Of a stretch of 64,000 bases of DNA, positions 36,301-52,364 are shown one piece after another; the first letter of the stretch is position 1, and the number at the start of each line of letters is the position of its first letter. Both the position numbers and the translations under genes were made by a program. The DNA is from Coriobacteriia bacterium (GTDB lineage: Bacteria > Actinomycetota > Coriobacteriia > Anaerosomatales > JAAXUF01): assembly GCA_038245725.1 (NCBI GenBank), contig JBBRSD010000008.1, positions 79,946 to 143,945 of the forward strand, in the 5' to 3' direction. The notes under the pieces were generated by a model. The model made no database searches. It was not told where the DNA came from and saw nothing but the letters and a program-made list of their open reading frames with translations.

Positions 36301-36958
36301 TGGACGAGTGTCAAATACGGGCCTGATGCTCGACGTTGCTCGTACCGAAGTTCGCGATCATCTTGCGATACACATAGTTCGGCTCGTTGTTCATGTGCGA
36401 TGAGCCGAAGAACGCGACGCCCTTCGACTGGTTCGTCGCAGGAAGCGCACCGCGCGCGGTGACAAGACCTGTCGCGATCTCGCTCATGGCCGTGTCGAGC
36501 GACATCTTGCCCCACGGCCCGTTACCTGTCCGCTTGTAGGCGACGCCCGTGGCGTCGTATGCGGGGTCGTAGGCGAACGCGGAATCCGCGGGATGTGTCC
36601 CGGAGAATGCGCCGAGCCTGCGCGAGTTGTTCACGAGCTGCAGCGAACCCGCGCCCTTTGCGCACAGACCGCCTGAGTTCATGGGCGACTCGAAGTCACC
36701 GTAGATGTCGACGACCTTGCCGGTGTTCGCACCGGTCAGAGCGGTCACGACCCGCTGTCCGCAACTCGCCGAGCAGTACGGACACGTGGTGTTCGTGACC
36801 CTGTAGTTGATGGCATCGCTCTCATAGGCGCTCGCCTTGGCAGCGTCGAACGCCACGTCCATTCCGCAGCCAACGACCGCGCCGGCAACCGCCGCGGTCT
36901 TGAGAAACGCGCGTCGCGTCATGCCGTCAAACGATTGCCCCTTATCTTTAGTTGCCAT
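33398..36958 (-). CDS. fdhA: Tat-exported FdnG-like formate dehydrogenase catalytic subunit, selenocysteine at codon 216 (in-frame TGA 36311..36313)
   Basis: Track ORFs 36311..36958 and 33398..36262 are in the same frame (3561 nt in total). Reading through gives [32 protein letters not shown], which is the FDH Sec-His motif. Tat signal TRRAFLK. N-terminal FeS motif CPYCSASC...LCAKG. GGINALRGIHNVQG block. Confidence 0.85.
36268..36313 (-). other. UGA(Sec) recoding site with SECIS-like hairpin
   Basis: RNA reads UGA CA CUCGUCC A CGGUCGCC GGUCU GGCGGCUG CAUUC GGACGAG. Lower stem is 7 bp, upper stem is 8 bp with G.U pairs, and the apical loop is GGUCU about 16-20 nt after the UGA. This resembles E. 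coli fdhF as I recall it. Confidence 0.7.
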
Positions 36959-37073: not shown

Positions 37074-37130
37074 AGCAAAAATACAAAGAACCGGCACACA
37101 CCAAGGCACAAGCCTCAGCCGTGAACCGGT
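37074..37130 (-). terminator. Intrinsic-terminator-like hairpin plus U tract in the fdh leader
   Basis: Minus-strand RNA reads ACCGGUUCACGG...GGC-UUGU-GCC...GUGUGCCGGU followed by UCUUUGUAUUUUUG. It lies between the riboswitch-like element and the fdhA start. Confidence 0.5.
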
Positions 37131-37218
37131 CCATTTTGTATGCACGTTGATCTTCCCCTACCCCGTGGAAAGCGCCACCCAGCCCAAAGGCAAACCCCCC
37201 ACAGGGGCCTTTGGTGGT

Positions 37219-37322
37219 GTGGTCTCCTTTCCAAACGGGAGGCGACCGCGTTTCCGCTGGCACCCATCGGCCCGAGAACCATAGCTGCCGCAAGGCGCCG
37301 TAGATTGAAGGGCTCGGAGATC
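37219..37322 (-). promoter_or_regulatory. Moco (molybdenum/tungsten cofactor) riboswitch-like element, copy 1
   Basis: RNA reads AUCUCCGAGCCC...GGGCCGAUGGGUGCCAGCG-GAAA-CGCGGUCGCCUCCCGUUUGGAAAGGAGAC. The conserved blocks CUCCGAG, GCCUCCC and GGAAAGGAG match the Moco motif as I remember it. Its paralogue at 50135..50240 shows compensatory changes. Confidence 0.65.
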
Positions 37323-37405
37323 ATCTGTGTCGCGCTTTCAATGTGGTTCGCCTTGAGCTACCGGGCCCGAGGCTAGCCCGCACGGAGTGCGGCCTCCACG
37401 ATTTC

Positions 37406-40132: not shown

Positions 40133-41341
40133 TCAGCGTCCGTGTTCGGAGCGCGTGAGCTCCTCGCCGAGAACAGCGAGCGCTTCGAGAGCCATGTCGA
40201 CATCACTCTCCGTGACGCCGAAACCGACGCTCAGGCGCAGGGCGCCACACTCGATCGTGCCGAGCACCCGATGTGCCCACGGGGCGCAGTGCAGCCCGGA
40301 GCGCACCGCGATGCCGTACCTGCGATCGAGCGCGAATGCGAGCCGGTCGGCCGGGACATGCTCGTGCACGATCGAGACGACCGGAACGCGCGGCTCGTCG
40401 GCTGCGGGTCCGAGAACCCGGAAGCCCTGGATGCCCGCCAGCCCGCCGAGCAACCGCCGCGTGAGCGCCGTCTCGCGCGCTCGCTGCGTCTCGCCGTGAT
40501 CGCGGATCCACCGCGCCGCGGCGCCCAGCCCGATCACTCCGGGCACATTCGGCGTGCCGGCCTCGTAGCGGTCCGGCCGCCCGCGCGGGCCTATGGGGTC
40601 CTCGCTCTCGCCCCCACCGGTGCCGCCCATGACGAGTTCGGCGGGCTCGCACTGGGGAGAGAGGTAGAGCACGCCCACGCCCTGCGGACCGAGCAGCCCT
40701 TTGTGCCCGGCGCACGCCCAAGCGTCCACGCCAAGCGTAGCGAGATCGACATCGAGGTGCCCTCCGGCCTGCGCGCCGTCGACGATCATGAGCGCGCCGC
40801 GATCGTGAGCGATGTCTGCGAGATCGGCCACCGGCTGGATCGCGCCGGTCACGTTGCCGGCGTGCTGGCAGACGACCGCCCGAGTGGGAGCTGCGGCGAC
40901 AAGCGCCTCGACCGAGTGCAGGTCGACGCAGCCGGCGTCGTCCGCCTCGGCGAGCACGACCTCGACGCCTCGCGACGCGAGTACGTTGAGCGGGCGGGCG
41001 ACCGCGTTGTGCTCGACGGGACCCACGACGACTCGGTCGCCCGGCGAGAGCAGTCCGAACAGCACGAGGTTGATCGCCTGGGTGCACCCCGGCTGGAACA
41101 GCAGGTTCTTCGCGTCTGCCACGCCGAGAAGTGCCGCAATATCATGCCGCGCACCGTGCATGGCGCGCGCGGTGTCGATCGCGAGCCGGTAGGCGCCGCG
41201 GCCGGGGTTGCCGCCGAGTTCCGTGAGCGCGCGCTCCATCGCCTCCACCACCTCGGGCGGCTTGGGCCACGAGGTCGCAGCGTGGTCGAGGTAGATCGTG
41301 CGCTGCGGCGCCGCGGGCGCGGTGTTCTCGGCGGGGGTCAT
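40133..41341 (-). CDS. Class-V aminotransferase-fold cysteine desulfurase / selenocysteine lyase-like protein
   Basis: IYLDHAATSWP, PLP-lysine context CAGHKGLLGPQG, and active-site RSGLHCAPWAH. Confidence 0.8.
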   Translation of the reverse strand: MTPAENTAPAAPQRTIYLDHAATSWPKPPEVVEAMERALTELGGNPGRGAYRLAIDTARAMHGARHDIAALLGVADAKNLLFQPGCTQAINLVLFGLLSPGDRVVVGPVEHNAVARPLNVLASRGVEVVLAEADDAGCVDLHSVEALVAAAPTRAVVCQHAGNVTGAIQPVADLADIAHDRGALMIVDGAQAGGHLDVDLATLGVDAWACAGHKGLLGPQGVGVLYLSPQCEPAELVMGGTGGGESEDPIGPRGRPDRYEAGTPNVPGVIGLGAAARWIRDHGETQRARETALTRRLLGGLAGIQGFRVLGPAADEPRVPVVSIVHEHVPADRLAFALDRRYGIAVRSGLHCAPWAHRVLGTIECGALRLSVGFGVTESDVDMALEALAVLGEELTRSEHGR

Positions 41342-41344
41342 CTG

Positions 41345-41818
41345 CTAGTGGCCTCCGCCGTGCATCATGTCGACGGCATGCTCGAACTGGTCGGCGACGA
41401 AGCCGAAGCATTCGCGCGCGGCTTTCTCGGAGCCGGGCAGATTGATGACGAGCGTGGTGCCGAGCATCGCCGCGGTGCCGCGCGAGAGCATTGCGCGTCC
41501 TGTGACCTTGAGCGACTCGGCGCGGATGTGCTCGGCGATGCCGGGAACGACGCGGTGGCACACGGCGAGCGTTGCCTCAGGGGTGACGTCGCGCGGCCCC
41601 ACTCCGGTGCCCCCACACGTGAGCACGATGTCGGCGCCGGCCTCCGCCATCGTGATGATCGAGGCCTGGATCGCCGTGGAATCGTCGGTACAGACCTCGT
41701 AGACGGCAACGCGCCAGCCGCGATTGCTGATGAGTGCCGATAGCGCGCGCCCGGCGGTGTCTTCAGCCTCGCCGCGCGTGTCCGAGCAGGTCAGCACACC
41801 GATGTTGAGCTCAGCCAT
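41345..41818 (-). CDS. mog: MoaB/MogA-family molybdopterin adenylyltransferase-like protein
   Basis: IGVLTCSD...VLTCGGTGVGPRDVTPEAT...LPGSEKAA. Start at MAELNIG overlaps the MOSC gene stop by 8 nt. Confidence 0.85.
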   Translation of the reverse strand: MAELNIGVLTCSDTRGEAEDTAGRALSALISNRGWRVAVYEVCTDDSTAIQASIITMAEAGADIVLTCGGTGVGPRDVTPEATLAVCHRVVPGIAEHIRAESLKVTGRAMLSRGTAAMLGTTLVINLPGSEKAARECFGFVADQFEHAVDMMHGGGH

Positions 41819-42386
41819 CGGTGCCCTCCTCCTTCTCCGCCTTGCGGCACTCGTTCGCGGCACGCACCGATTCGGACTCGGCGAGCGACTCCTCGGGCGA
41901 GCGCGTGCACGTGCCGTCGCCCAGCGACGCGACCGCTACCGTGTCGCCGACCGCGACGTCGCCGGCCTTCCGCACGACCGCGAACACGCCTTCGCGCGGC
42001 ATCACGCAATCGCCTGCCTGGTAGAAGATCGCGCACTTGGTATGGCAGACCTTGCCGATCTGCGATACCTCGAGGACCACATCGTCGCCCACATGCACGA
42101 TCGAACCGACAGGTAGCGTCATGACGTCGAGGCCCTGCGTGGTGATGTTCTCGGCGAAGTCGCCAGGACCGACATCGAGACCCTTGGCGCACATCGAATC
42201 GATCGATTCCTGCGCCAGCAGCGAGACCTGGCGATGCCAGTCGCCCGCGTGCGCGTCGCCCTCAAACCCACGGTCGAGCACGAGCGTTCCGCGCTCGAAT
42301 CGCTGCTTGCGCACCGTCTTCTTCTCGGAGAGGTTCACCGAGACGACCCTGCCGGTGCGGCCGGTGGACCCCGCTTCCTCGTTCAT
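41811..42386 (-). CDS. MOSC-domain protein
   Basis: [12 protein letters not shown]...GFEGDAHAG...RQVSLL...GDFAENITT...[11 protein letters not shown] pattern. ATGA overlap with the moaC stop. Confidence 0.8.
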
Positions 42387-42877
42387 CGCTGCTCCTCTCG
42401 CGTCCAGGTTCCGGAGTTCCCGCCCTCTTTGGAGAGCAGCTTGATGTCGCCAAGAACCATACCGCGGTCGACCGCTTTGCACATGTCGTAGACGACGAGC
42501 GCGGCGACCGACGCGGCCGTGAGCGCTTCCATCTCGACGCCGGTCTTGCCGTCGGTCTCGGCGGTGGCGGTGATTCGCACGCCGGGCGCGTCGCCGTACA
42601 CCGGCTCAAGCTCGACGGCCACGTGCGTGAGCGAGAGCGGGTGGCATAGCGGGATGAGCTCACTCGCGCGCTTGGCGGCCATGATGCCGCCGATGCGTGC
42701 CGCCGCGAACACGTCGCCCTTGGGCGCGGCGCCCTCGGCGATCATCGCGAGCGTCGTCGGCTTCATCGAAACGAAACCGCCCGCCGCCGCACGCCGGTGT
42801 GTGACCGGCTTGGCCGCGACGTCGACCATGCGCGCGTGACCAGCCTCGTCGAGATGCGTGAGTCGCTCGTCGGACAT
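42383..42877 (-). CDS. moaC: Cyclic pyranopterin monophosphate synthase
   Basis: [20 protein letters not shown]...[20 protein letters not shown] and EMEALTA..VAALTVYDM-type motifs. Confidence 0.93.
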
Positions 42878-42879
42878 GA

Positions 42880-43908
42880 TCAGCCTCCGATCTGTGACAT
42901 GTGGCGGTCCGTGCCGATCTTCTCGGCGTGGCCCTCGGGCTTGATGCGCAGTGCGAGTTCCACGAGCGCGCGGACATCGTCGTCGGTGCCGCCACGCAGG
43001 GCGCTGCGGACATCGAGCTCCTCATCGCTGAAGAGGCAGGGTCGCAGGCGACCGTCCGCGGTCAGACGCAGGCGGTTGCACTCCGCGCAGAAGTGGTGCG
43101 AGAGCGGCGAGATGACGCCCACCGTGCCCTGTGCGCCCGCGAACCGGTAGTAGCGCGCTGGCCCCCATCCGCCGGGTGCATCGTCCTTGCCGACCGGCTC
43201 GAGCTCGCCGAGACCCGCCGAGACACCCTTGGCTGAGAGCAGCTCGATGATCTCCTCGCTCGGGATGATGTCGTCGCGCGTCCAGCCGGTGCCGTGCTCG
43301 GAGCTGCAACCCCCGCCCTCTTCGGCTTCGCCGACCGGCATGTACTCGATGAAGCGCACGTGCAGCGGGCGGTCGAGCGTCATCTTCGCGAAGCCGAGCA
43401 GGTCCTGCTCAAGCGAGCGCACGACGACGACGTTGAGCTTGACCGGCCCGAAGCCGGCCTCGAATGCGGCGTCGAGCCCGGCGAGCGCGTCCTCGAGCCG
43501 GCCGCCTCGCGTGATTCGGGCGTAGGCCTCGGGATCGAGCGAGTCGAGGCTGATGTTGACGCGCTCGAGGCCCGCGTCACGGAGCTCGCTGGCGAAGCGC
43601 GGCAAGAGCGTCGCGTTCGTGGTGAGAGCAAGGCTTTCGACGCCGTCGATCTCGCTCAGCCGACGGACGAAGTCGGGCACGCCGCGGCGAACGAGCGGCT
43701 CGCCGCCGGTCAGCCGGACCTTGCGAATGCCTTCGCTCACCGCGATGCGGGTGAAACGCAGGATCTCATCGTAGGAAAGGATCTCGGACCGGTCCTTCCA
43801 CGTCACACCCTCCTCGGGCATGCAGTAGACGCAGCGCAGGTTGCAGCGGTCGGTGAGCGATATCCGCAGGTAGTCGATGCGGCGACCGTGGGAGTCCGTG
43901 CCGTGCAT
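42880..43908 (-). CDS. moaA: GTP 3',8-cyclase (radical SAM)
   Basis: [19 protein letters not shown] radical-SAM motif, and C-terminal [19 protein letters not shown]. The ATG overlaps the mobB TGA by 1 nt. Confidence 0.93.
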
Positions 43909-44450
43909 CAGGCGTCGCCTCCGCCGAGGAATCGCGCGCCGATGAGGTCCGCCACGCCCGCATAGCCGTCGTCGAGGTCGAACACGGGAACGCCCGCGGC
44001 TGCCGTCTGCTCGGCGAGCTCGGCGTTGTCGGTGACGAGCGCGAGCATCTCGGCCGGCTCGCACACGAGGGTCTGCGAGCGCTCGCGCCGGCTGATCTCG
44101 ATGCGGTTGCGGCCTTCGCGCTTGTAGCCTTCGGTGATGAGTATGTCGGCACCGGCGCCGTGGGCGATCTGGGCGATGTCATCCAGCGGCATCTCCTGCT
44201 CCACGTCGTGGATGAGCGCGAACTTCTCGGGAGAAGAGACCATCGTCACTGCGGCACCCGCCCGCGCGTGGCGGTACGAGTCCTTGCCGGGGACGTCGAT
44301 GTCGTAGTCGTGGATGTGGTGCTTGACGGTCGCGACGCGCACGCCACGCTCCGCCAGCTCGCGGATCAGCTTCTCGAGGAAGGTGGTCTTGCCGGAGTCG
44401 CCCTTCCCCACTACCGAGACGATCGGCACCGTGTTCGGTGCTGGCGTCAT
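43908..44450 (-). CDS. mobB: Molybdopterin-guanine dinucleotide biosynthesis adapter MobB
   Basis: P-loop VVGKGDSGKTTFLEKLI and VATVKHH. Confidence 0.85.
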   Translation of the reverse strand: MTPAPNTVPIVSVVGKGDSGKTTFLEKLIRELAERGVRVATVKHHIHDYDIDVPGKDSYRHARAGAAVTMVSSPEKFALIHDVEQEMPLDDIAQIAHGAGADILITEGYKREGRNRIEISRRERSQTLVCEPAEMLALVTDNAELAEQTAAAGVPVFDLDDGYAGVADLIGARFLGGGDA

Positions 44451-44476
44451 GCTTACCCCTAACTGGTCGAGGCCGC

Positions 44477-44695
44477 TTAGAAGCAGCCGAGGTCGCAGTT
44501 GTGTACTCGGATACCAGCCAGGTCTGCCGCCGCGCCCGCGACCTTGTACGGAACGCCCGCGTCTTCGGCGAACTTGCGCAAGACCGGACAGGTGACCTTG
44601 CCGTCCACGGCTTTGGCCGCGATGGCGGCCTTCATCTCGTCGGTGACCTGCGCCGTCCAGCGCGGATCGAGTTCCTTGGGTGCCTTGTCGCTCAT
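44477..44695 (-). CDS. 72-aa conserved-looking orphan protein ending in CDLGCF
   Basis: The ATG overlaps the moeA TGA (ATGA). Product is MSDKAPKELDPRWTAQVTDEMKAAIAAKAVDGKVTCPVLRKFAEDAGVPYKVAGAAADLAGIRVHNCDLGCF. The upstream 138 codons of the track ORF are Arg-rich shadow over moeA. Confidence 0.55.
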   Translation of the reverse strand: MSDKAPKELDPRWTAQVTDEMKAAIAAKAVDGKVTCPVLRKFAEDAGVPYKVAGAAADLAGIRVHNCDLGCF

Positions 44696-45951
44696 GGTGT
44701 GCCCTCCTCCATATCGAGCCGGACGCAGTCGACCTGCGTTCCGGCGGTAAAGACGCCGTCGCCTTCGGGAAGTACGACGAAGCAGTTGCCGCGATGTGCC
44801 GCCGTCAGCAACGCGGATGATTGGCTGCCCGAGAGTGACGCGACGAAGCCGTCGCCAGCGGGATCGTGCTCCACGCGTCCGCGAAGGTAGTAGCGCCGGT
44901 CCTGCTTCTTCTTCACGTCGTGGGAGAGCCGTGCGACGGTCACCGGCCGCGCCAGCGCCGAGAAGCCCTGCATGACGCGGAGCGCAGGGCGCACGAAGAT
45001 CTCGAAGCCGACGTAGGTGCTCGTGGGGTTGCCTGGCAGACCGAAGAACGGCACGCCGTGAATGGTGCCGAGCGTCTGCGGGTTGCCGGGACGCATCTTC
45101 ACCTTGCAAAACGTGAGCTCGCCCATCTCCTCGAGCACCGGCTTCACGAAGTCGAAGTCACCTACCGAGACGCCACCGCTCGTGAGGATGAAGTCGGTCT
45201 GGCTCGCGGCGAGCGCGAAGGCCGCTCGGGTGGCGTCCATGTCGTCGGCGACGGTGGGGTAGCGCACGGGGATGGCGCCGGCCGCAAGTACCTGCGCGGC
45301 GATCGAGTAGCTGTTGGAGTTGCGGATCTTGCCGGGGCCGGGCTTCTCGGCGACCTCGACGAGTTCGCTGCCGGTGGAGAGGACGGCTACGCGCGGCCGG
45401 CGGTAGACGCTCACGGTGTCGTGCCCGGTCGAGGCGAGCAGCCCGATCGCTGCCGGCCCGATCACGTCGCCGGCGGTCAGCACGACATCGCCTGCGCGCA
45501 CCTCTTCCCCGCGGCAGCGGATATGCTCGCCGAAGCGCGGCTCGATCTCGAACGCAACGCGCGAGCCGATGCCGCCATCGCCCGACACCGTATGCGTGCG
45601 CTCGACCATAACGACGCTGTCGGCGCCCGCGGGCACGGCCGCGCCGGTCATGATGCGCGCGGCCTGGCCGGGACCGACGTCGATGCCGGCCACATCGTCG
45701 CCGGCGGCGATGTGCGCCATCACGTCGAGCTCGACGGGAGAGGTCTCGCTCGCGCCCGCCAGGTCGGCGGCGCGCATGGCGAAGCCGTCCATCGCCGAGT
45801 TGTCGAAGGGCGCGACGTCGATGTCGCTGACCGCATCCACTGCAAGCACGCGGTGAAGCGCGTCGAGCAGCGAGACGCGCTCGGCCGGAAGCGGTGCGAC
45901 GAACCCGAGCACGAGTTCGAACGCTTGCTCGACGGTCATCGTTTCAGGCAT
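44692..45951 (-). CDS. moeA: Molybdopterin molybdotransferase (or tungstotransferase)
   Basis: Typical MoeA blocks: PFDNSAMDGFA, RIMTGA.VP.GAD, SGGVSVGDFD, PGNP. Confidence 0.92.
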   Translation of the reverse strand: MPETMTVEQAFELVLGFVAPLPAERVSLLDALHRVLAVDAVSDIDVAPFDNSAMDGFAMRAADLAGASETSPVELDVMAHIAAGDDVAGIDVGPGQAARIMTGAAVPAGADSVVMVERTHTVSGDGGIGSRVAFEIEPRFGEHIRCRGEEVRAGDVVLTAGDVIGPAAIGLLASTGHDTVSVYRRPRVAVLSTGSELVEVAEKPGPGKIRNSNSYSIAAQVLAAGAIPVRYPTVADDMDATRAAFALAASQTDFILTSGGVSVGDFDFVKPVLEEMGELTFCKVKMRPGNPQTLGTIHGVPFFGLPGNPTSTYVGFEIFVRPALRVMQGFSALARPVTVARLSHDVKKKQDRRYYLRGRVEHDPAGDGFVASLSGSQSSALLTAAHRGNCFVVLPEGDGVFTAGTQVDCVRLDMEEGTP

Positions 45952-45954
45952 GGT

Positions 45955-47376
45955 TCACGCCTCCTCGCCCGAGGCGACGACGCGCTCGGGGGATGTGTAG
46001 ACGGTCAGCTTGCCGCCGCGAGCGTAGCCCACGAGCGTGATGTGCAGTTCGTCGGCGATGTCGGCGGCCAGATCGGTCACGGCGCTGCGAGAGACCGCGA
46101 TCGGCACTCGCGACTTGGCGGCCTTCACCGTCATCTCGTAGGACAGGCGGCCGGTTGAGAGCAGGATTGCGTCGCCCGTCGGGATGGTGTCGAGCCACGC
46201 CCGGCCGAGCACCTTGTCGAGCGCGTTGTGCCGCCCAACGTCCTCGCGCACAATCTCGAGCTTACCCGCTCGGCCCAGCCCACAAGCGTGCATGCCTCCG
46301 CTGTCGCGGTACATCCCCGCGCGTCGCGCCATCTCGCCGATGAGATCGTAGAGTTCGTCGGCGCTGACGCGCAGGTCCGAGTCGACCGGCGCCAAGCCGC
46401 GCGCGTGTCCCACACTTGCGAACGTCATCCCGCGACCGCATCCGCTCGTCAGGTAGCGCTTGCGCTCCGCGAGGTCGGCCGGGACCTCCTCGGCAGATGA
46501 GACGTAGACGAGGCCGCGCTTCGCGTCCACGTCGATCGAGGAGAGCTTCTCGCGGTCCGTGAGCAGGCCCTCGGAGAGCAGGAAGCCCGCGGCCATGTCC
46601 TCGAGGTCGCTGGGCGTGGCCTGGGTGGTCGCGATCTCGCGGTCGTTGAGGTAGATGGTGACCGGCGTTTCTCGGGGCATCGCCCGCGTCGAACGACGGT
46701 TCGTGACCTCCATGACCTCGAGCTTCACGCCGCCACGGACGCGGCGCGGCTCTTCCGAGACGATCTCGCGCGCGTCGAGCAGGTCGGCGGGCGTGTTCAC
46801 GTTGATGAGCGAGCGCAAGTCGGGATCGACCGCACGCAATGCGTCGGCGGGTACCTCGACGGTCTTCACGTGCGCGAAGATAGCGACGAGACGGCGGCGC
46901 CCGGTGGCAAGGACCTCGCGCGCAACCGGCAGGCACGCCTCGACGCGGTAGAGTGCGAGCAGCGGCTCGAGGCCCTTCTCGGTGATGGGGACGACCGCGT
47001 CGGCACCTTCGCGCAGGTCCCAGAGCGCTCTGACGACCTCCGGCGTGAGATGCGGGATGTCGGCGGCGACGGCGAGTATCCACTCTGAGGTCGCCTCAGC
47101 CAGAGCAGTGGCAAGGCCGCCGAGCGGGCCCTGGTACTCGACCTCGTCGCGCACGACGCGCACGTCTGCGGGCAGCTTCAAGGCGACAAGTGCTTCGGGA
47201 CGGTTCGTCACGACGAGCGTGTGCTCGCACACCTCACCCACAGCATCGATCACCCGTGAGATGAGCGCCCTGCCGTCGACATCGAGCAGCGTCTTGTCGA
47301 CACCCATGCGCAAGGAACGGCCACCAGCCAGAACGGCGGCGGTCAGCGCGAGGCGACCTGTGGCGAGCTCAGTCAA
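45955..47376 (-). CDS. MobA (MPT guanylyltransferase) fused to FdhD (sulfurtransferase for formate dehydrogenase)
   Basis: The N-terminal ~195 aa carry LAGGRSLRMGVDKTLL and PLGGL. The C-terminal ~270 aa carry FdhD blocks: LEDMAAGFLLSEG, GGMHACGL, VGRHNALDKVLG, SGRLSYEMTVKA. Confidence 0.85.
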   Translation of the reverse strand: MTELATGRLALTAAVLAGGRSLRMGVDKTLLDVDGRALISRVIDAVGEVCEHTLVVTNRPEALVALKLPADVRVVRDEVEYQGPLGGLATALAEATSEWILAVAADIPHLTPEVVRALWDLREGADAVVPITEKGLEPLLALYRVEACLPVAREVLATGRRRLVAIFAHVKTVEVPADALRAVDPDLRSLINVNTPADLLDAREIVSEEPRRVRGGVKLEVMEVTNRRSTRAMPRETPVTIYLNDREIATTQATPSDLEDMAAGFLLSEGLLTDREKLSSIDVDAKRGLVYVSSAEEVPADLAERKRYLTSGCGRGMTFASVGHARGLAPVDSDLRVSADELYDLIGEMARRAGMYRDSGGMHACGLGRAGKLEIVREDVGRHNALDKVLGRAWLDTIPTGDAILLSTGRLSYEMTVKAAKSRVPIAVSRSAVTDLAADIADELHITLVGYARGGKLTVYTSPERVVASGEEA

Positions 47377-48505
47377 TCGAGTCCCCGTTCCCGGAGGCGT
47401 GGTTCGGCAGCTGGTCAGATACTCTCCAGCGTACCGCCGTCGCCTTGAATACCGCCAGCACGGGAATTCCCGGCGCCAATCCCAGGTCCGCCGAAGCCGC
47501 GCGCGACACCGATGCCGCCAACCTCAAACCGCTTGCATCGAGCACGATGTAGTTCGTGGCGCCGCGCGTCTCACTCGAGACCACTCGCGCGGCGATCTGA
47601 TTGCGCGCTGTTGTGGGCGGGAGCTGGGCGCCGGCCTCGAACAAGATCACGTCGTGCGGCTGGACCGCGAACACCACAGCCGAACCCGCCGGCGCATAAC
47701 CCGTGACGACCACGCGCGCCTCACCGTGGCCAATGTCGACCAAACCCTCGCCACTGTGCTCCACGATACCGGTCTGCGGTTCTTCCACGCCGAGGAACGA
47801 CGCGGTCCACTCGTCGGCGGGCAGCTCCGTCACGTCGTCGGCAGGTCCGCAGGCGACGATTCGGCCGGCGTTCATCACCGCGACGTGATCCGCGACGACG
47901 AGCGCCTCGTCCTGGTCGTGCGTGACCCACACCGCCGTCGCGCCGCTCTCGCGCAGGATGCGCGCGAAGTCGCGCGTGAGTGCGCGCTTGAGCAGCGGGT
48001 CGAGGCTGGCGAGCGGCTCGTCGAGCAGCAGCACGCGCGGTTCGAGCACGAGTGCGCGCGCGAGCGAGACGCGCTGCGCTTCGCCGCCCGAGAGCGAAAG
48101 CGCGCTGCGAGGCTCGTAGCCGGCGAGGCCTACGCGCGCGAGGGCGACCGCGACGCGCTCGGCACGCTCGGCGCCGCCGACACCGCGGACCGCCAGCCCG
48201 TATTCGACGTTGGCGGCCACGCTTCCCTTGAAGAGGTACGGACGCTGGAAGACCGCCGCGATCTGACGTCGCGCCGTCTGGTCTCGAGCGTCCACATCCC
48301 GCCCGCCCAGCAGAATGCGGCCGGCGTCCGGGCGTTCGAGCAGGCCGAGGATGTGCAGCAACGTCGTCTTGCCCGAACCGCTTGGGCCGAGCAGCGCCAG
48401 CACGGTGCCGGCGGGCACCTCGACGCGATCGACCTGGAGCGTGAAGCCGCTCCGCGCAAAAGCGCGCGTGATGTTCTCGGCGACGAGGCCCAGGGGCGCG
48501 GTCAT
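47369..48505 (-). CDS. tupC: Tungstate/molybdate ABC transporter ATPase with C-terminal TOBE/Mop-like domain
   Basis: Walker A GPSGSGKTT, signature LSGGEAQR, Walker B LLLDEP. The C-terminal ~70 aa form a TOBE-like barrel. ATGA overlap with the permease stop. Confidence 0.85.
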   Translation of the reverse strand: MTAPLGLVAENITRAFARSGFTLQVDRVEVPAGTVLALLGPSGSGKTTLLHILGLLERPDAGRILLGGRDVDARDQTARRQIAAVFQRPYLFKGSVAANVEYGLAVRGVGGAERAERVAVALARVGLAGYEPRSALSLSGGEAQRVSLARALVLEPRVLLLDEPLASLDPLLKRALTRDFARILRESGATAVWVTHDQDEALVVADHVAVMNAGRIVACGPADDVTELPADEWTASFLGVEEPQTGIVEHSGEGLVDIGHGEARVVVTGYAPAGSAVVFAVQPHDVILFEAGAQLPPTTARNQIAARVVSSETRGATNYIVLDASGLRLAASVSRAASADLGLAPGIPVLAVFKATAVRWRVSDQLPNHASGNGDSID

Positions 48506-49215
48506 CGGGCCCCCGCCTCCCAGTGATCGGCCGACGTCTGGAAACCGGTCAGCACGATGTTGACGAAGATGACGATCGCCATAAGCACGACCGCGAGTGC
48601 CAGCGCGGGACCGTAGTCGCCCTGCCGGGTGAACTGCACCATGGCCGTAGTCATGACGCGCGTGTCGCCCTCCAGGTTGCCGCCGACCATCTGCACCGCG
48701 CCGACCTCGGAGATGATCGCCCCGAAGCCGCCGGCAACTGCGGCGAGCAGCCCCATTCGCGCCTCGGAGAGGATGAGCGCGCCCACTCGCAACGCGCCCG
48801 CACCCAAAGATCTCGCCTGCAGCGTGAGATCGCGGGGGACGGCCGAGACCGCCGCCGCGGTGATCGCCATGACCACGGGAACGGCGATGATGAGCTGCGC
48901 GATCACTACGACCGGGCGGGTGTAGAGCAGGTTCATGAAGCCGAGCGGTCCTCGGCGCGAGAACGTCATCGCGACGACGAGGCCGACCACCGTGGGCGGC
49001 AGCCCCATCCCCGCGTTGAAGATGACGAGCGCCGCGCGCCGCCCCAGGAAACGCTTCGCGCCGACCAGATAGCCGACGGGCAGCCCGATCAGCAGAGCGA
49101 GAAGCGTCGCTGTCCCCGAGAGGAGAATCGACGTCCCGACGATCTGCCATACGCCAACGGAGCCGGAGATGAGCATCGCCCATCCCTCGCTCCACGCGTC
49201 GACGAATATCTGCAT
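48502..49215 (-). CDS. tupB: Tungstate/molybdate ABC transporter permease
   Basis: 237 aa, about 5-6 TM helices, located between the binding-protein and ATPase genes. Confidence 0.8.
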   Translation of the reverse strand: MQIFVDAWSEGWAMLISGSVGVWQIVGTSILLSGTATLLALLIGLPVGYLVGAKRFLGRRAALVIFNAGMGLPPTVVGLVVAMTFSRRGPLGFMNLLYTRPVVVIAQLIIAVPVVMAITAAAVSAVPRDLTLQARSLGAGALRVGALILSEARMGLLAAVAGGFGAIISEVGAVQMVGGNLEGDTRVMTTAMVQFTRQGDYGPALALAVVLMAIVIFVNIVLTGFQTSADHWEAGAR

Positions 49216-49238: not shown

Positions 49239-50129
49239 CTACTTGGCGTTCGGAATGAAGAGCTGCTGCCCGTACTTGGCCACGCCGAACTCGCCGATGA
49301 CCTTCTGAGCTTCAGCGCTGACGATCCAGTCCGCGAAGGCCTGGCCGCCTGCTTGGTTCTTCGACTCCGGGATGACGATGACGCCGTACTGGTTGAGCAG
49401 CGCCTTCTGCTTCTCGAGGACGATCTCGAGGCCGGGAAGCTGGGCCGCCATCGACAGCCACGTTCCGCGGTCGATGAGCGTGTACGCGCTCTTCTCATCG
49501 GCGACCTTGGCGGTCTCGCCCATGCCCTGACCGGTCGAGACGTACCACGTGTCGGCTGCAGGCGTGGGTGTTGCGATGCCCGACTTCGCCCAAAGCGTCA
49601 GTTCCTTCGTGTTGGTGCCCGACTTGTCCCCGCGCGAGATGAAGGTCGCCTTGCCAGCCTTGCCCGCCTTCTGGATCGCAAGCATCGCGGCTGTGGTGTC
49701 GGCAGAACCCTTGACCCCGGCCGGATCGGCCTTCGGGCCGACGATGACGAAGTCGTTGAACATGACGTCTTGACGCGTCTTGGCGTAACCGTCGGCCAGG
49801 AACTTGAGCTCGGCGGCGGGTGAGTGGACCAGCAGGACGTCGGCGTCCTTGCTCTGGCCGAGCTTGAGGGCCTCACCGCTGCCCACTGCGATGACCTTCA
49901 CCTTGTACTGCGGGTAGGCCTTCTCGAAGGCCGGTATCAAGACGCCGAAGAGCCCGGAGTCCTGCGTCGAGGTGGTCGAGGCCAGAATGACCTCGGGGCT
50001 GACAGCCTTCTCGGCGGAGGTGGACGAAGTTGCCGGCTTCGAGCATCCCGCCATCGAGAAGAGCAGAACGGCGGCGAGCAACGAGCCCGCCAGGCGCCTC
50101 CCTTGAGGCGCAGCGATACGGTGGTGCAT
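49239..50129 (-). CDS. tupA: Tungstate-binding lipoprotein (TupA-type)
   Basis: Lipobox FSMAGCS. TTSTQDSGL anion-binding motif characteristic of TupA as I recall it. The ATG lies 3 nt after the riboswitch-embedded AAGGGGA. Confidence 0.8.
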   Translation of the reverse strand: MHHRIAAPQGRRLAGSLLAAVLLFSMAGCSKPATSSTSAEKAVSPEVILASTTSTQDSGLFGVLIPAFEKAYPQYKVKVIAVGSGEALKLGQSKDADVLLVHSPAAELKFLADGYAKTRQDVMFNDFVIVGPKADPAGVKGSADTTAAMLAIQKAGKAGKATFISRGDKSGTNTKELTLWAKSGIATPTPAADTWYVSTGQGMGETAKVADEKSAYTLIDRGTWLSMAAQLPGLEIVLEKQKALLNQYGVIVIPESKNQAGGQAFADWIVSAEAQKVIGEFGVAKYGQQLFIPNAK

Positions 50130-50134
50130 AACGG

Positions 50135-50240
50135 ATCCCCTTTCCAATACGGGAGGCGGGGTCGTTTCCGTTCCCCGCCCTATCGGTCCGGCCACCATGG
50201 ACGCCGCGCAGCGCCGGTAGGTAGATCGGACTCGGAGATG
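50135..50240 (-). promoter_or_regulatory. Moco/Wco riboswitch-like element, copy 2, with the tupA Shine-Dalgarno inside the closing helix
   Basis: RNA reads AUCUCCGAGUCCG...CCGGACCGAUAGGGCGGGGAACG-GAAA-CGACCCCGCCUCCCGUAUUGGAAAGGGGAUCC GUU AUG. It has the same conserved blocks as copy 1, with covarying stems. Confidence 0.65.
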
Positions 50241-50270
50241 TGTGGACCGCGATTCTTCGCGGCACGCCCT

Positions 50271-50298
50271 AGCCTACACGTTTCGGGCATGCCGACAA
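50271..50298 (-). promoter_or_regulatory. Sigma70-like promoter candidate for the tup/Moco operon
   Basis: Minus strand reads TTGTCG, 16 nt, TAGGCT, about 30 nt upstream of riboswitch copy 2. Confidence 0.4.
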
Positions 50299-50333: not shown

Positions 50334-52364
50334 TTAGTGAACGGTGAAATACTTCCGTGCCACCGAGTAGGTCTTGGCGTGGCCGGTATCCCAGTGCCTC
50401 GCCTGCACGCGCCACTTTCCCGCGCCGAGCTTCACGGAGACCGAGCAGCGGCTGCCGCTGTAGTAGTTCGCGGCCTTGCCGGAGATCGTCTTCCGAACCA
50501 CGTAGCGGTGCGTGCCGTTCGACAGACGCTCGTAGCGCTCAAAGTAGAACGTCGCGGCGTATGTGCCAGCAACATGCCGAGGATAGAGGGTGGCTCGGGT
50601 GGTGAAGTACTTCGTGCGCGTCATGTAAGTCGGAACGGATGGAGTGCCGACGTAGGCATGCGGGATGAGCTTGAAGACCGCGCTGCTCCCCGAGCCGACC
50701 GTCGTGTTGCCGTTGAAGACGACCCAATACGATGTGGCCGACGACGGCTTCACTGTGAAGCTGAACGCACTGCCTGCTGTAATGGGCACCGCCGTCAGTG
50801 CGGTACTGCCGGACCGTCTTACGTAGACGGTTCCGCTGGCAAGACCCAACCCGCTGGCCTTTATCGTGCCTGTGATCGTGGTGTTCGTGTTGTACGCCGT
50901 GATGATCGTACCGGTCCTCGAGAGCGTGAAGGCGGGCACAAGCTTCGAACTCACATGAGTCTCGGATATCTGACCCATGCCGTCGGTCGCGCGCACCGTC
51001 ACCGTGAGCGAGCCATTTACCGATGCGATCGAGTCGATCGTGGTCGTGGCCTCCCACGTGTCCCACCCGGTGCTGGTCTTGGCGGGCAGCCACGAGACCG
51101 TGCTCCCCCAGCTCGCGCCATTCCAGTACGTGCCGTCCGCGCGTCGGACGCGGATCTCGACGTTGGCGACCCCGATGCCCGCGCCATCGGTGGCCGTGCC
51201 CTCGACCGAGAGAGCCGCCGAGTCGAGAATCGTGCTCTGAGTGGGCGACGTGATGCGAACGCTCGGCGGGGTGAGCTGGTGCTGCCCAATCCAATGTTGG
51301 CCACCGTCGACGGTGCGCAGGATGGTTTCGTTGTGCCCGATGACGACCCAAGTGGTACTGGTAAGCATCTGGACGCCGGTGAGGTTGTTAGTGGCACCTG
51401 TGGTCGTGGTCGTTTGCCAGCTTGCGCCGCCGTTCGTCGTCCACGCCATCTTGCCGGCATCGCCGACCTCGACCACGTGGTTCGCGTCGAAGGCGTCGAT
51501 CGCGTTGACGACGATGGGGGTCGTCTGACCGAACGTCCTCCACGTCGCGCCATCAGTGGTGCACAGGCCAGCCTTCGACCTTGTGCCGATGAACGCGGTC
51601 CGGCTGTCGACGACCGAGACGCAGCTGATATCGGCGGTCGGCGTGCCTGCGATCTGCGTCGTCCACGACGAGCCGCTGTTCGCGGTGCGGTAGATGAGCC
51701 ACGTCTGCGGCGTGGGGTCATTTGAGGACTGGCGGTCGTTGCCGACTGCCCAGGCGACGTCGCCGCCGGAAGCCGCATCGACAGCGACGATATTAGCGAA
51801 TGTCGCCGGTGCCGGGTCAGGATCAACGGCTGGATGAATTGGACCCTGGAACTGGAACGCCCAAGCGCCGGCGCCAACAGCGGACCCGATGAACGCGTAG
51901 CGAGAGTTTGCAAAGCGATCGCCGACAATAACGCGCCGGCCTGCCGAGAGGTACGCCATCCCGAAGAAGCGAGGATCCGTGGCATTGAAGATCGGGCTCT
52001 CCACGGACCAGATAGCGCCGCCATTCGAGGTCGAGTAGATGCCGTCGGAGTTGTCGCGCCATGCCGTAGCGATGTTCGGATTGGTCGAGGCGCGGACTCC
52101 GGTCATGGTGAAGTTGGGCACGATCGAGGCATGCCAGCTCACTCCACCATTGGTCGTTCGCGAAATCACGCCTGTCAGGTTGCCAGGAGTCGCCGGAAGC
52201 GCGTAGCCGCCAGCGATGAACCCCGTCGTGGGGTTGGCGAAGCTGAGGCCGTTGAGCTGATAGTAGACGGGGGGCAAGGCCGCCGCCGCCATCGACGGAG
52301 CAAACCCGAGGGTCGCGAAGAGCGCGAGCGCAACCAGCCCCAGTACGGACTTCACCCTTACCAT
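50334..52364 (-). CDS. Secreted BNR/Ycf48-like beta-propeller protein with Ig-like modules and a shared C-terminal domain
   Basis: Signal peptide LVALALFATLGFAPSMAAA. Divergent blades (SRTTNGGVSW, YSTSNGGAIW, YRTANSGSSW, CTTDGATW, WTTNGGASW, LRTVDGGQHW). The C-terminal ~90 aa align with the end of the 1957..4449 product (L.PRH.AGTYAA...). Confidence 0.8.
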   Translation of the reverse strand: MVRVKSVLGLVALALFATLGFAPSMAAAALPPVYYQLNGLSFANPTTGFIAGGYALPATPGNLTGVISRTTNGGVSWHASIVPNFTMTGVRASTNPNIATAWRDNSDGIYSTSNGGAIWSVESPIFNATDPRFFGMAYLSAGRRVIVGDRFANSRYAFIGSAVGAGAWAFQFQGPIHPAVDPDPAPATFANIVAVDAASGGDVAWAVGNDRQSSNDPTPQTWLIYRTANSGSSWTTQIAGTPTADISCVSVVDSRTAFIGTRSKAGLCTTDGATWRTFGQTTPIVVNAIDAFDANHVVEVGDAGKMAWTTNGGASWQTTTTTGATNNLTGVQMLTSTTWVVIGHNETILRTVDGGQHWIGQHQLTPPSVRITSPTQSTILDSAALSVEGTATDGAGIGVANVEIRVRRADGTYWNGASWGSTVSWLPAKTSTGWDTWEATTTIDSIASVNGSLTVTVRATDGMGQISETHVSSKLVPAFTLSRTGTIITAYNTNTTITGTIKASGLGLASGTVYVRRSGSTALTAVPITAGSAFSFTVKPSSATSYWVVFNGNTTVGSGSSAVFKLIPHAYVGTPSVPTYMTRTKYFTTRATLYPRHVAGTYAATFYFERYERLSNGTHRYVVRKTISGKAANYYSGSRCSVSVKLGAGKWRVQARHWDTGHAKTYSVARKYFTVH

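Follow-up and report, generated by a model that had tools for sequence, protein, structure and literature searches.

We propose, with a probability of roughly 80%, that the leader of tupA in the 64,000-nucleotide stretch of Coriobacteriia DNA analysed here (the window) is a P3-less riboswitch aptamer whose P1 helix, when stabilised by a cofactor, hides the tupA Shine-Dalgarno sequence (SD), and so acts as a translational OFF switch on a coupled operon; within this reading we infer which ligand and which metal are sensed, that the switch works in the OFF direction, and that control spreads to distal genes. The element marks the start of a ~10-kb operon for tungstate uptake and cofactor synthesis, and its value lies in annotation and physiology, with a two-platform pair of riboswitches and an early-coding hairpin as modest points of interest. 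The parts of the leader and of the first codons of tupA are as follows.

50271..50298, minus strand: putative promoter-like element TTGTCG-N16-TAGGCT (sequence)
50121..50246, minus strand: RF01055 aptamer, full model match, P3 absent (cmscan, 61.8 bits)
50234..50239, minus strand: 5' strand of P1, AUCUCC, pairing with GGGGAU at 50140..50135 (cmscan structure line)
50186..50231, minus strand: P2 with a tetraloop-receptor-like bulge, CCUAC...CAUGG (cmscan)
50154..50180, minus strand: P4, capped by a GAAA tetraloop at 50168..50165 (cmscan)
50144..50153, minus strand: P5 (CC...GG), with a conserved loop of CCUCCCGUAUUGG (cmscan)
50135..50145, minus strand: GGAAAGGGGAU, made up of junction nucleotides and, at 50140..50135, the P1 3' strand GGGGAU that forms the tupA SD (sequence, cmscan)
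50094..50111, minus strand: hairpin A, tupA coding positions +19..+36, GCGCCUC-AAGG-GAGGCGC (-17.5 kcal/mol)
50072..50092, minus strand: hairpin B, tupA coding positions +38..+58, UGGCGGGC-UCGUU-GCUCGCCG (folding, alignment)

When the entire window was scanned against Rfam 15 at gathering thresholds, exactly two matches were returned, both to RF01055 (the Molybdenum/Tungsten riboswitch aptamer, or Moco RNA motif; gathering score 36 bits). The match in the tup leader, at 50246..50121 (-), has the minus-strand sequence UCCACACAUCUCCGAGUCCGAUCUACCUACCGGCGCUGCGCGGCGUCCAUGGUGGCCGGACCGAUAGGGCGGGGAACGGAAACGACCCCGCCUCCCGUAUUGGAAAGGGGAUCCGUUAUGCACCAC; it covers the model over its full length (1-135) with 61.8 bits (E 2e-12, cmscan), 26 bits over the curated threshold, and was recovered again in a whole-genome covariance-model search. 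The aptamer proper occupies 50239..50135 (-). In the cmscan alignments of both copies the P3 columns are deleted, and in the tup copy P2 and P4 are joined by G-A-U only. The GAAA tetraloop on P4 and the receptor-like bulge in P2, both features of RF01055, are present in the tup copy, and would be expected to form a tertiary contact; all invariant junction nucleotides of a 70-sequence alignment are retained, and P2 and P4 together hold one A.C and one A.A mismatch. On these grounds 50246..50121 (-) is a genuine P3-less riboswitch of the Moco/Tuco class, class and subclass both having been described; it is functional-looking, and routine Rfam annotation would detect it.

The original prediction had paired this element with a second one in the leader of fdh, based on five shared sequence blocks and on compensatory differences between stems, and had proposed a search with the RF01055 covariance model. 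Both minus-strand copies contain all five blocks, and the model matches both, with 61.8 and 59.4 bits. The difference in P2 (GUCCG/CGGAC versus GCCC/GGGC) is real, as is that in P4 (GGCGGGG/CCCCGCC versus GGUGCC../..GGUCGCC), although the latter P4 contains two mismatches in the cmscan structure. With respect to the extent that had been proposed, 50135..50298, position 50135 is indeed the last base of P1, whereas 50298 lies outside the RNA fold and belongs to the promoter-like TTGTCG.

The 3' end of the aptamer leads directly into the gene, in that GGAAAGGGGAU is followed by CCGUU and then by AUG, the tupA ATG lying at 50129..50127. The sole SD candidate, AAGGGG, is composed of the junction and the P1 3' strand and lies 7 nt before the AUG. 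Consequently the claim that the closing helix contributes its 3' strand as the tupA SD holds, the strand being GGGGAU within GGAAAGGGGAU, and the arrangement is kept in ~32 tupA-linked copies; the distance from SD to ATG had been given as 3 nt, yet the actual gap after GGGGAU is 5 nt. The reading frame that opens at the 50129 AUG begins MHHRIAAPQGRRLAGSLLAAVLLFSMAGC, a lipoprotein signal peptide. An upstream in-frame ATG at 50198 was considered as the tupA start, and is not credible because it lies inside the aptamer. P1 could here be extended outwards so as to pair the AUG itself (C3-G120, A4-U119 and A6-U117 of the match), but this was rejected as a conserved feature, since in the 70-sequence alignment the extension is paired in 30.7% of cells, with mostly gaps.

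A dedicated promoter for the tup leader, with a predicted transcription start near 50264, is likely from sequence comparison, as 25 of 32 tupA-linked copies have a TAnnnT at 18-45 nt before the aptamer (shuffled mean 5, maximum 13). A consensus promoter scanner found no sigma-70 site in the tup leader, simple promoter and terminator scans returned nothing in either riboswitch leader, and a terminator scan of the tup leader in the window found no terminator. The product of the gene upstream, at 50334..52364 (-), is a secreted protein of 676 aa in which propeller-like motifs recur and Ig-like repeats occupy the C-terminal part; 35 nt separate the stop codon of this gene (50336..50334) from the promoter-like -35 of the tup leader.

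The genes that follow the riboswitch are the following.

49239..50129, minus strand: tupA-type tungstate-binding lipoprotein, 296 aa, lipobox SMAGC (NCBIfam, PDB comparison)
40133..49215, minus strand: remaining operon genes, from tupB to further cofactor genes (NCBIfam; extent to ~40133 from the ORF list)
49215..48502, minus strand: tupB, encoding a TupB-like permease
48505..47369, minus strand: ABC ATPase with a TOBE-type tail, ModC/WtpC-like in its C-terminal part
47376..45955, minus strand: mobA-fdhD fusion (NCBIfam)
45951..44692, minus strand: moeA, followed by a small ORF (NCBIfam)
44450..43908, minus strand: mobB (NCBIfam)
..42880, minus strand: moaA (NCBIfam)

The protein encoded first has a single NCBIfam match, to NF041772 TupA, at 196 bits; given that the equivalog cut-off is 400, we name it TupA-type and not an equivalog. 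In the PDB it matches the TupA structures 3lr1 (E 8e-58) and 5my5, the latter from Desulfovibrio alaskensis (E 1e-56), and alignment to both shows that the equivalents of the oxyanion-site residues His59, Arg118, Thr124 and Asp170 of D. alaskensis TupA are retained. Of the TupA-type motifs, LLVH, SRGD, SGT and DRGT are kept, and STTS replaces TTTS (the first Thr being replaced by Ser). With TupA, TupB, the ABC ATPase, MobA-FdhD, MoeA, MobB and MoaA encoded downstream, the RNA occupies the leader of molybdenum/tungsten transport and cofactor genes that is typical of RF01055, and this gene context recurs in relatives. At successive junctions of the operon the genes are first 23 nt apart, then overlap by 4 nt, and then by 8 nt.

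Under the proposed mechanism, plentiful cofactor, most likely in its tungsten form, would bind the four-helix junction and stabilise P1, which would then hold the SD GGGGAU (within GGAAAGGGGAU), block binding of the 30S subunit and reduce translation of tupA. Repression would probably run along the operon by translational coupling, possibly with Rho-dependent polarity, given that the genes downstream overlap or follow one another at very short distances. At low cofactor levels, P1 would open and the operon would be translated. The broader claim of the original prediction, that one ligand co-ordinates metal uptake, cofactor synthesis and the client enzyme, is plausible on this arrangement.

The likeliest ligand of the tup riboswitch is the tungsten cofactor, a view that draws on the correlation of a missing P3 with gene content. 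In the earlier survey of the class, 58 of 176 Moco RNA representatives were without P3, and these tracked organisms that possess tupA/tupB or wtpA, the correlation being reported in 17 of 19 organisms (Regulski 2008, PMC2408646). The genome analysed here carries the tungsten-metabolism markers associated with the P3-less subclass, namely a TupA-type substrate-binding protein and a TupB-like permease, and fits the pattern more widely: no match to ModA was found in the 98.5%-complete genome, which holds one TupA-type gene, two AOR-family genes and one bis-PGD enzyme, the selenocysteine FdhA. An alternative is that Moco, or a metal-free or both-metal pyranopterin, is sensed rather than specifically the tungsten cofactor, and that the missing P3 is a trait of the lineage and not a determinant of specificity. 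Such a reading could draw on the specificity of P3-less RNAs being a gene-content correlation (Regulski 2008, PMC2408646), on P3 being absent from 69 of 70 copies in the whole order, so that the trait is also phylogenetic here, and on the nM affinity with which TupA proteins bind molybdate as well; our searches of the literature found no report of ligand binding, or of a response selective for the tungsten cofactor, by any P3-less member. However, the lack of ModA, the single TupA-type transporter and the two AOR-family genes of tungstoenzyme type speak for tungsten, as do the presence of a Sec-FDH belonging to a type that in Desulfovibrio contains tungsten and the recurrence of the same correlation in 17/19 organisms, and we consider the alternative unlikely, while still giving it some weight. 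The riboswitch, taken together with TupABC as the only transporter, AOR-type enzymes and Sec-FDH, supports the picture of an uncultured actinobacterial lineage that runs on tungsten. Neither of the two AOR-family (AFOR_N) genes, at G000:C10:9596-10204 and G000:C1:493987-494655, has a copy of RF01055 nearby, which indicates that tungstoenzyme clients other than FDH are not under the riboswitch.

The second match in the window lies in the leader of fdhA, the product of which is identified as formate dehydrogenase alpha by NCBIfam.

37208..37331, minus strand: second RF01055 aptamer, P3-less, preceding the Sec-containing fdhA (ATG 36958) by 250 nt (cmscan, 59.4 bits)
37076..37140, minus strand (hairpin ~37140..37088): terminator-like long hairpin with a UUUGUAUUUUUG tail in the fdh leader (folding and custom scan)

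The fdh copy resembles the tup copy in belonging to RF01055, in being P3-less and in its conserved junction blocks, with 62% identity over aligned columns, and differs from it in lying 250 nt from its gene and in having a terminator-like hairpin and U-tract after it. This hairpin has a predicted energy of -32.5 kcal/mol and was missed by the simple terminator scanner; in the model it forms both with and without P1 enforced. Each of the two copies resembles its positional orthologues in other genomes (0.70-0.77) more than it does its sister (0.62), and we therefore regard the duplication, or the existence of two types, as old. The segment 37076..37207 (-) contains a further long hairpin, which precedes the terminator-like one and has outer strands that pair the GGAAAGG of the fdh aptamer with a downstream CUUUCC, and the spacer folds better than its shuffles (z -2.9). 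The fdhA gene is split into ORFs 36958..36311 and ..33398 by an in-frame TGA at 36308..36310 (-), after ...VEHQARI; judged from the reading frame, this is likely to be a selenocysteine codon, and in the Pfam search of the whole genome the match continues across it, marked '1 TGA'.

These two copies, both adjoining tungsten/molybdenum-cofactor genes, are the only ones in the 2.43-Mb, 98.5%-complete genome. RF01055 is also carried by 37 of 40 relatives of the same family or order (38 of 41 genomes counting this one), and the matches total 76 over the 41 genomes, the two of the window included. Sorting the fetched matches by downstream gene placed 32 directly before a TupA homologue or TupA-like paralogue and 6 directly before other ORFs, with 23 preceding an FdhA homologue at a distance of ~210-500 nt (207-267 nt for 19 of them). 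All directly linked copies have the order GGAAAGG(A/G)G, N4-8 and start codon. Expression platforms were then scanned for stable hairpins, of at least -12 kcal/mol, that run directly into a U-rich tract, and such a structure occurs ~100-135 nt past the aptamer in 22 of 23 fdhA-linked leaders, compared to 1 of 32 tupA-linked ones. The suggestion that the element works translationally at tupA and transcriptionally at fdh is thus supported across genomes, since hairpin and U-tract track the fdhA-linked and not the tupA-linked copies. One genome therefore combines a single aptamer class with two distinct expression platforms, each conserved in position, and this pair, with more than 70 relatives, offers a convenient natural set for the question of whether P3-less aptamers sense the tungsten cofactor.

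A further feature of the tupA-linked copies lies within the gene itself, where hairpins A and B fall in codons 7-20. Across 27 TupA orthologues, 30-nt windows that start at +12/+15 have a mean energy of -12.3 kcal/mol, compared to -6.7 +/- 1.1 elsewhere in the same genes (minimum -9.2), and the stretch -21..+3 is locally open. In a 20-sequence alignment of the early-coding hairpins, 79.5% of cells pair, as opposed to 37-51% when partners are slid, and the arms vary by lineage with compensation, for example CCU to UCU together with AGG to AGA. Hairpin B is 76.7% paired, with double-sided changes in 7 of 8 pairs (20 sequences), and the case for it is weaker than that for hairpin A. Ranked among 1507 genes of the same genome, the value of -17.5 in the window is in the lowest 0.3%; among the 256 genes with signal-peptide-like N-termini it is in the lowest 0.8%. 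Half of the 38 directly linked copies lie beyond the 5th percentile of stability of this genome, compared to 0 of 18 fdhA starts.

Two readings of hairpin A were rejected. The first treats it as a by-product of Arg/Ala/Pro-rich signal peptides at 65% GC, yet signal-peptide-like genes (n=256) average -7.6 kcal/mol, and fdhA starts that encode Tat signals average -7.8 compared to -13.3 for the riboswitch-linked group. As the directly linked copies are stable whereas signal-peptide genes and fdhA starts are not, the hairpin goes with the translational platform and not with secretion signals or GC content. The second is an anti-aptamer pairing, in which the 3' arm, GGGAGGCG, is complementary to CGCCUCCC of the aptamer in the window; this complementarity is not conserved, given that lineages with GCGUCUC/GAGACGC, GGCUUGCC/GGCAAGCC and GCCUGCCGG/CCGGCGGGC keep the local hairpin and lose it. 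The arm codons CCU (Pro) and AGG (Arg) are expected to be uncommon in a 65%-GC genome. Tentatively, and with more doubt than confidence, we suggest that a hairpin starting 17-19 nt after the start codon, with a second one behind it, may be an undescribed integral part of the P3-less translational platform, preserved as RNA by compensatory changes in the signal-peptide region that partly involve rare codons. Such a hairpin could act as a transcriptional pause or folding insulator that buys time for cofactor binding before the ribosome loads, or could position or limit the 30S subunit where the mRNA enters the channel; if so, it is a small addition to how translational platforms may be built.

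The same hairpins are relevant to a second alternative, in which the main output of the tup leader would be transcriptional or degradative (Rho-dependent termination or mRNA decay in early tupA), SD occlusion being the trigger and the early-coding hairpins serving as pause or processing signals. The conserved position of the hairpin at +19..+36 and its restriction to translational copies are compatible with such a role, and the tight coupling of the operon makes polarity likely. However, terminator scans found neither a U-tract nor an intrinsic terminator after the early-coding hairpins, and an SD within P1 is sufficient alone in the E. coli precedent (Regulski 2008, PMC2408646), such that we judge this alternative improbable, and a translational switch with the SD in P1 is preferred.

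The structure of the aptamer is supported by comparison among relatives, for which the Rfam helices were mapped onto a MAFFT alignment of 70 aptamers. Standard pairs occupy 85.6% of cells, compared to 34-49% when partners are slid by 1-3 columns, and double-sided changes occur in 23 of 33 pairs. None of 500 column shuffles reaches the observed covariation values, although these counts are not probabilities, as the sequences are related, and the better evidence is the slid control together with the many distinct pair types per column. Taking the helices separately, P1 is 89.8% paired (double-sided changes in 4 of 6 pairs), P2 82.0% (9 of 11 pairs in its proximal part) and P4 90.1% (7 of 11 pairs); P5 and the junction nucleotides are almost invariant, and P3 is absent in 69 of 70 copies, a P3 insert being found in one. 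The argument that covariation indicates a structured RNA is thereby borne out for P1, P2 and P4, each across 70 sequences, and alignment with homologues from related genomes, as had been recommended, shows that the shared helices covary against both slid and shuffle controls.

Thermodynamic folding is less informative. The minimum free energy (MFE) fold of the tup leader alone is no better than its shuffles (z -0.30), and the energies obtained were -80.9 kcal/mol unconstrained, -75.1 with the aptamer enforced and -72.3 with the SD forced open. Even when the aptamer is not constrained, several alternative folds predict that the SD guanines are paired, and because of this, and of a leader fold that is not distinctive, the energy model cannot separate ON from OFF; it is consequently the covariance model and comparative covariation that support the structure, rather than thermodynamics. 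A third alternative, chance resemblance or a decayed, non-functional aptamer, could appeal to this unremarkable MFE and to the A.C and A.A mismatches, yet it is effectively refuted by the margin of the covariance score, by positional orthologues of the aptamer that span more than 30 genera with compensatory changes, and by the intact invariant junction.

Among described systems, the closest is the Moco riboswitch of E. coli moaABCDE, which shares with the RNA of the window its RF01055 membership, the P1-P2-P4-P5 junction, the GAAA tetraloop on P4 and receptor-like P2 bulge, and an RBS in the P1 3' strand, which implies ligand-dependent translational repression of cofactor-synthesis genes (Regulski 2008, PMC2408646). 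The E. coli moaA member has its RBS within P1, and was shown genetically to repress in response to Moco and not to its tungsten analogue (Regulski 2008, PMC2408646). It differs in possessing P3, which the RNA of the window lacks, and in its response to Moco rather than the tungsten form; the window RNA heads a tungstate transporter and cofactor operon, and is followed by a conserved early-coding hairpin of which we found no mention in the part of Regulski 2008 used here. A second point of comparison is provided by the P3-less Moco RNAs of the same study, which likewise lack P3, occur in hosts with tupA/tupB and tungstoenzyme-type genes, and are associated with pyranopterin-synthesis or tungsten genes. 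The examples given there come mainly from Clostridia, delta-proteobacteria and environmental DNA, whereas the present one belongs to an uncultured Coriobacteriia-type lineage, in which nearly all copies (69/70) are P3-less and in which tupA-linked translational and fdhA-linked terminator types coexist. Given that RBS-in-P1 platforms and P3-less riboswitches beside tungsten genes were both described in 2008 (Regulski 2008), the element adds no new principle.

In some relatives, three or four RF01055 copies lie within 15-30 kb of each other (G003:C1:65846-83179, G009:C5:47990-65845, G002:C7:12290-16662 and G007:C1:153687-182363), and the riboswitch regulon is therefore larger there than in the genome of the window. 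Some of these copies in relatives precede a second TupA-like protein, ~43% identical and bearing a Tat-like RR signal, and others precede unrelated ORFs.
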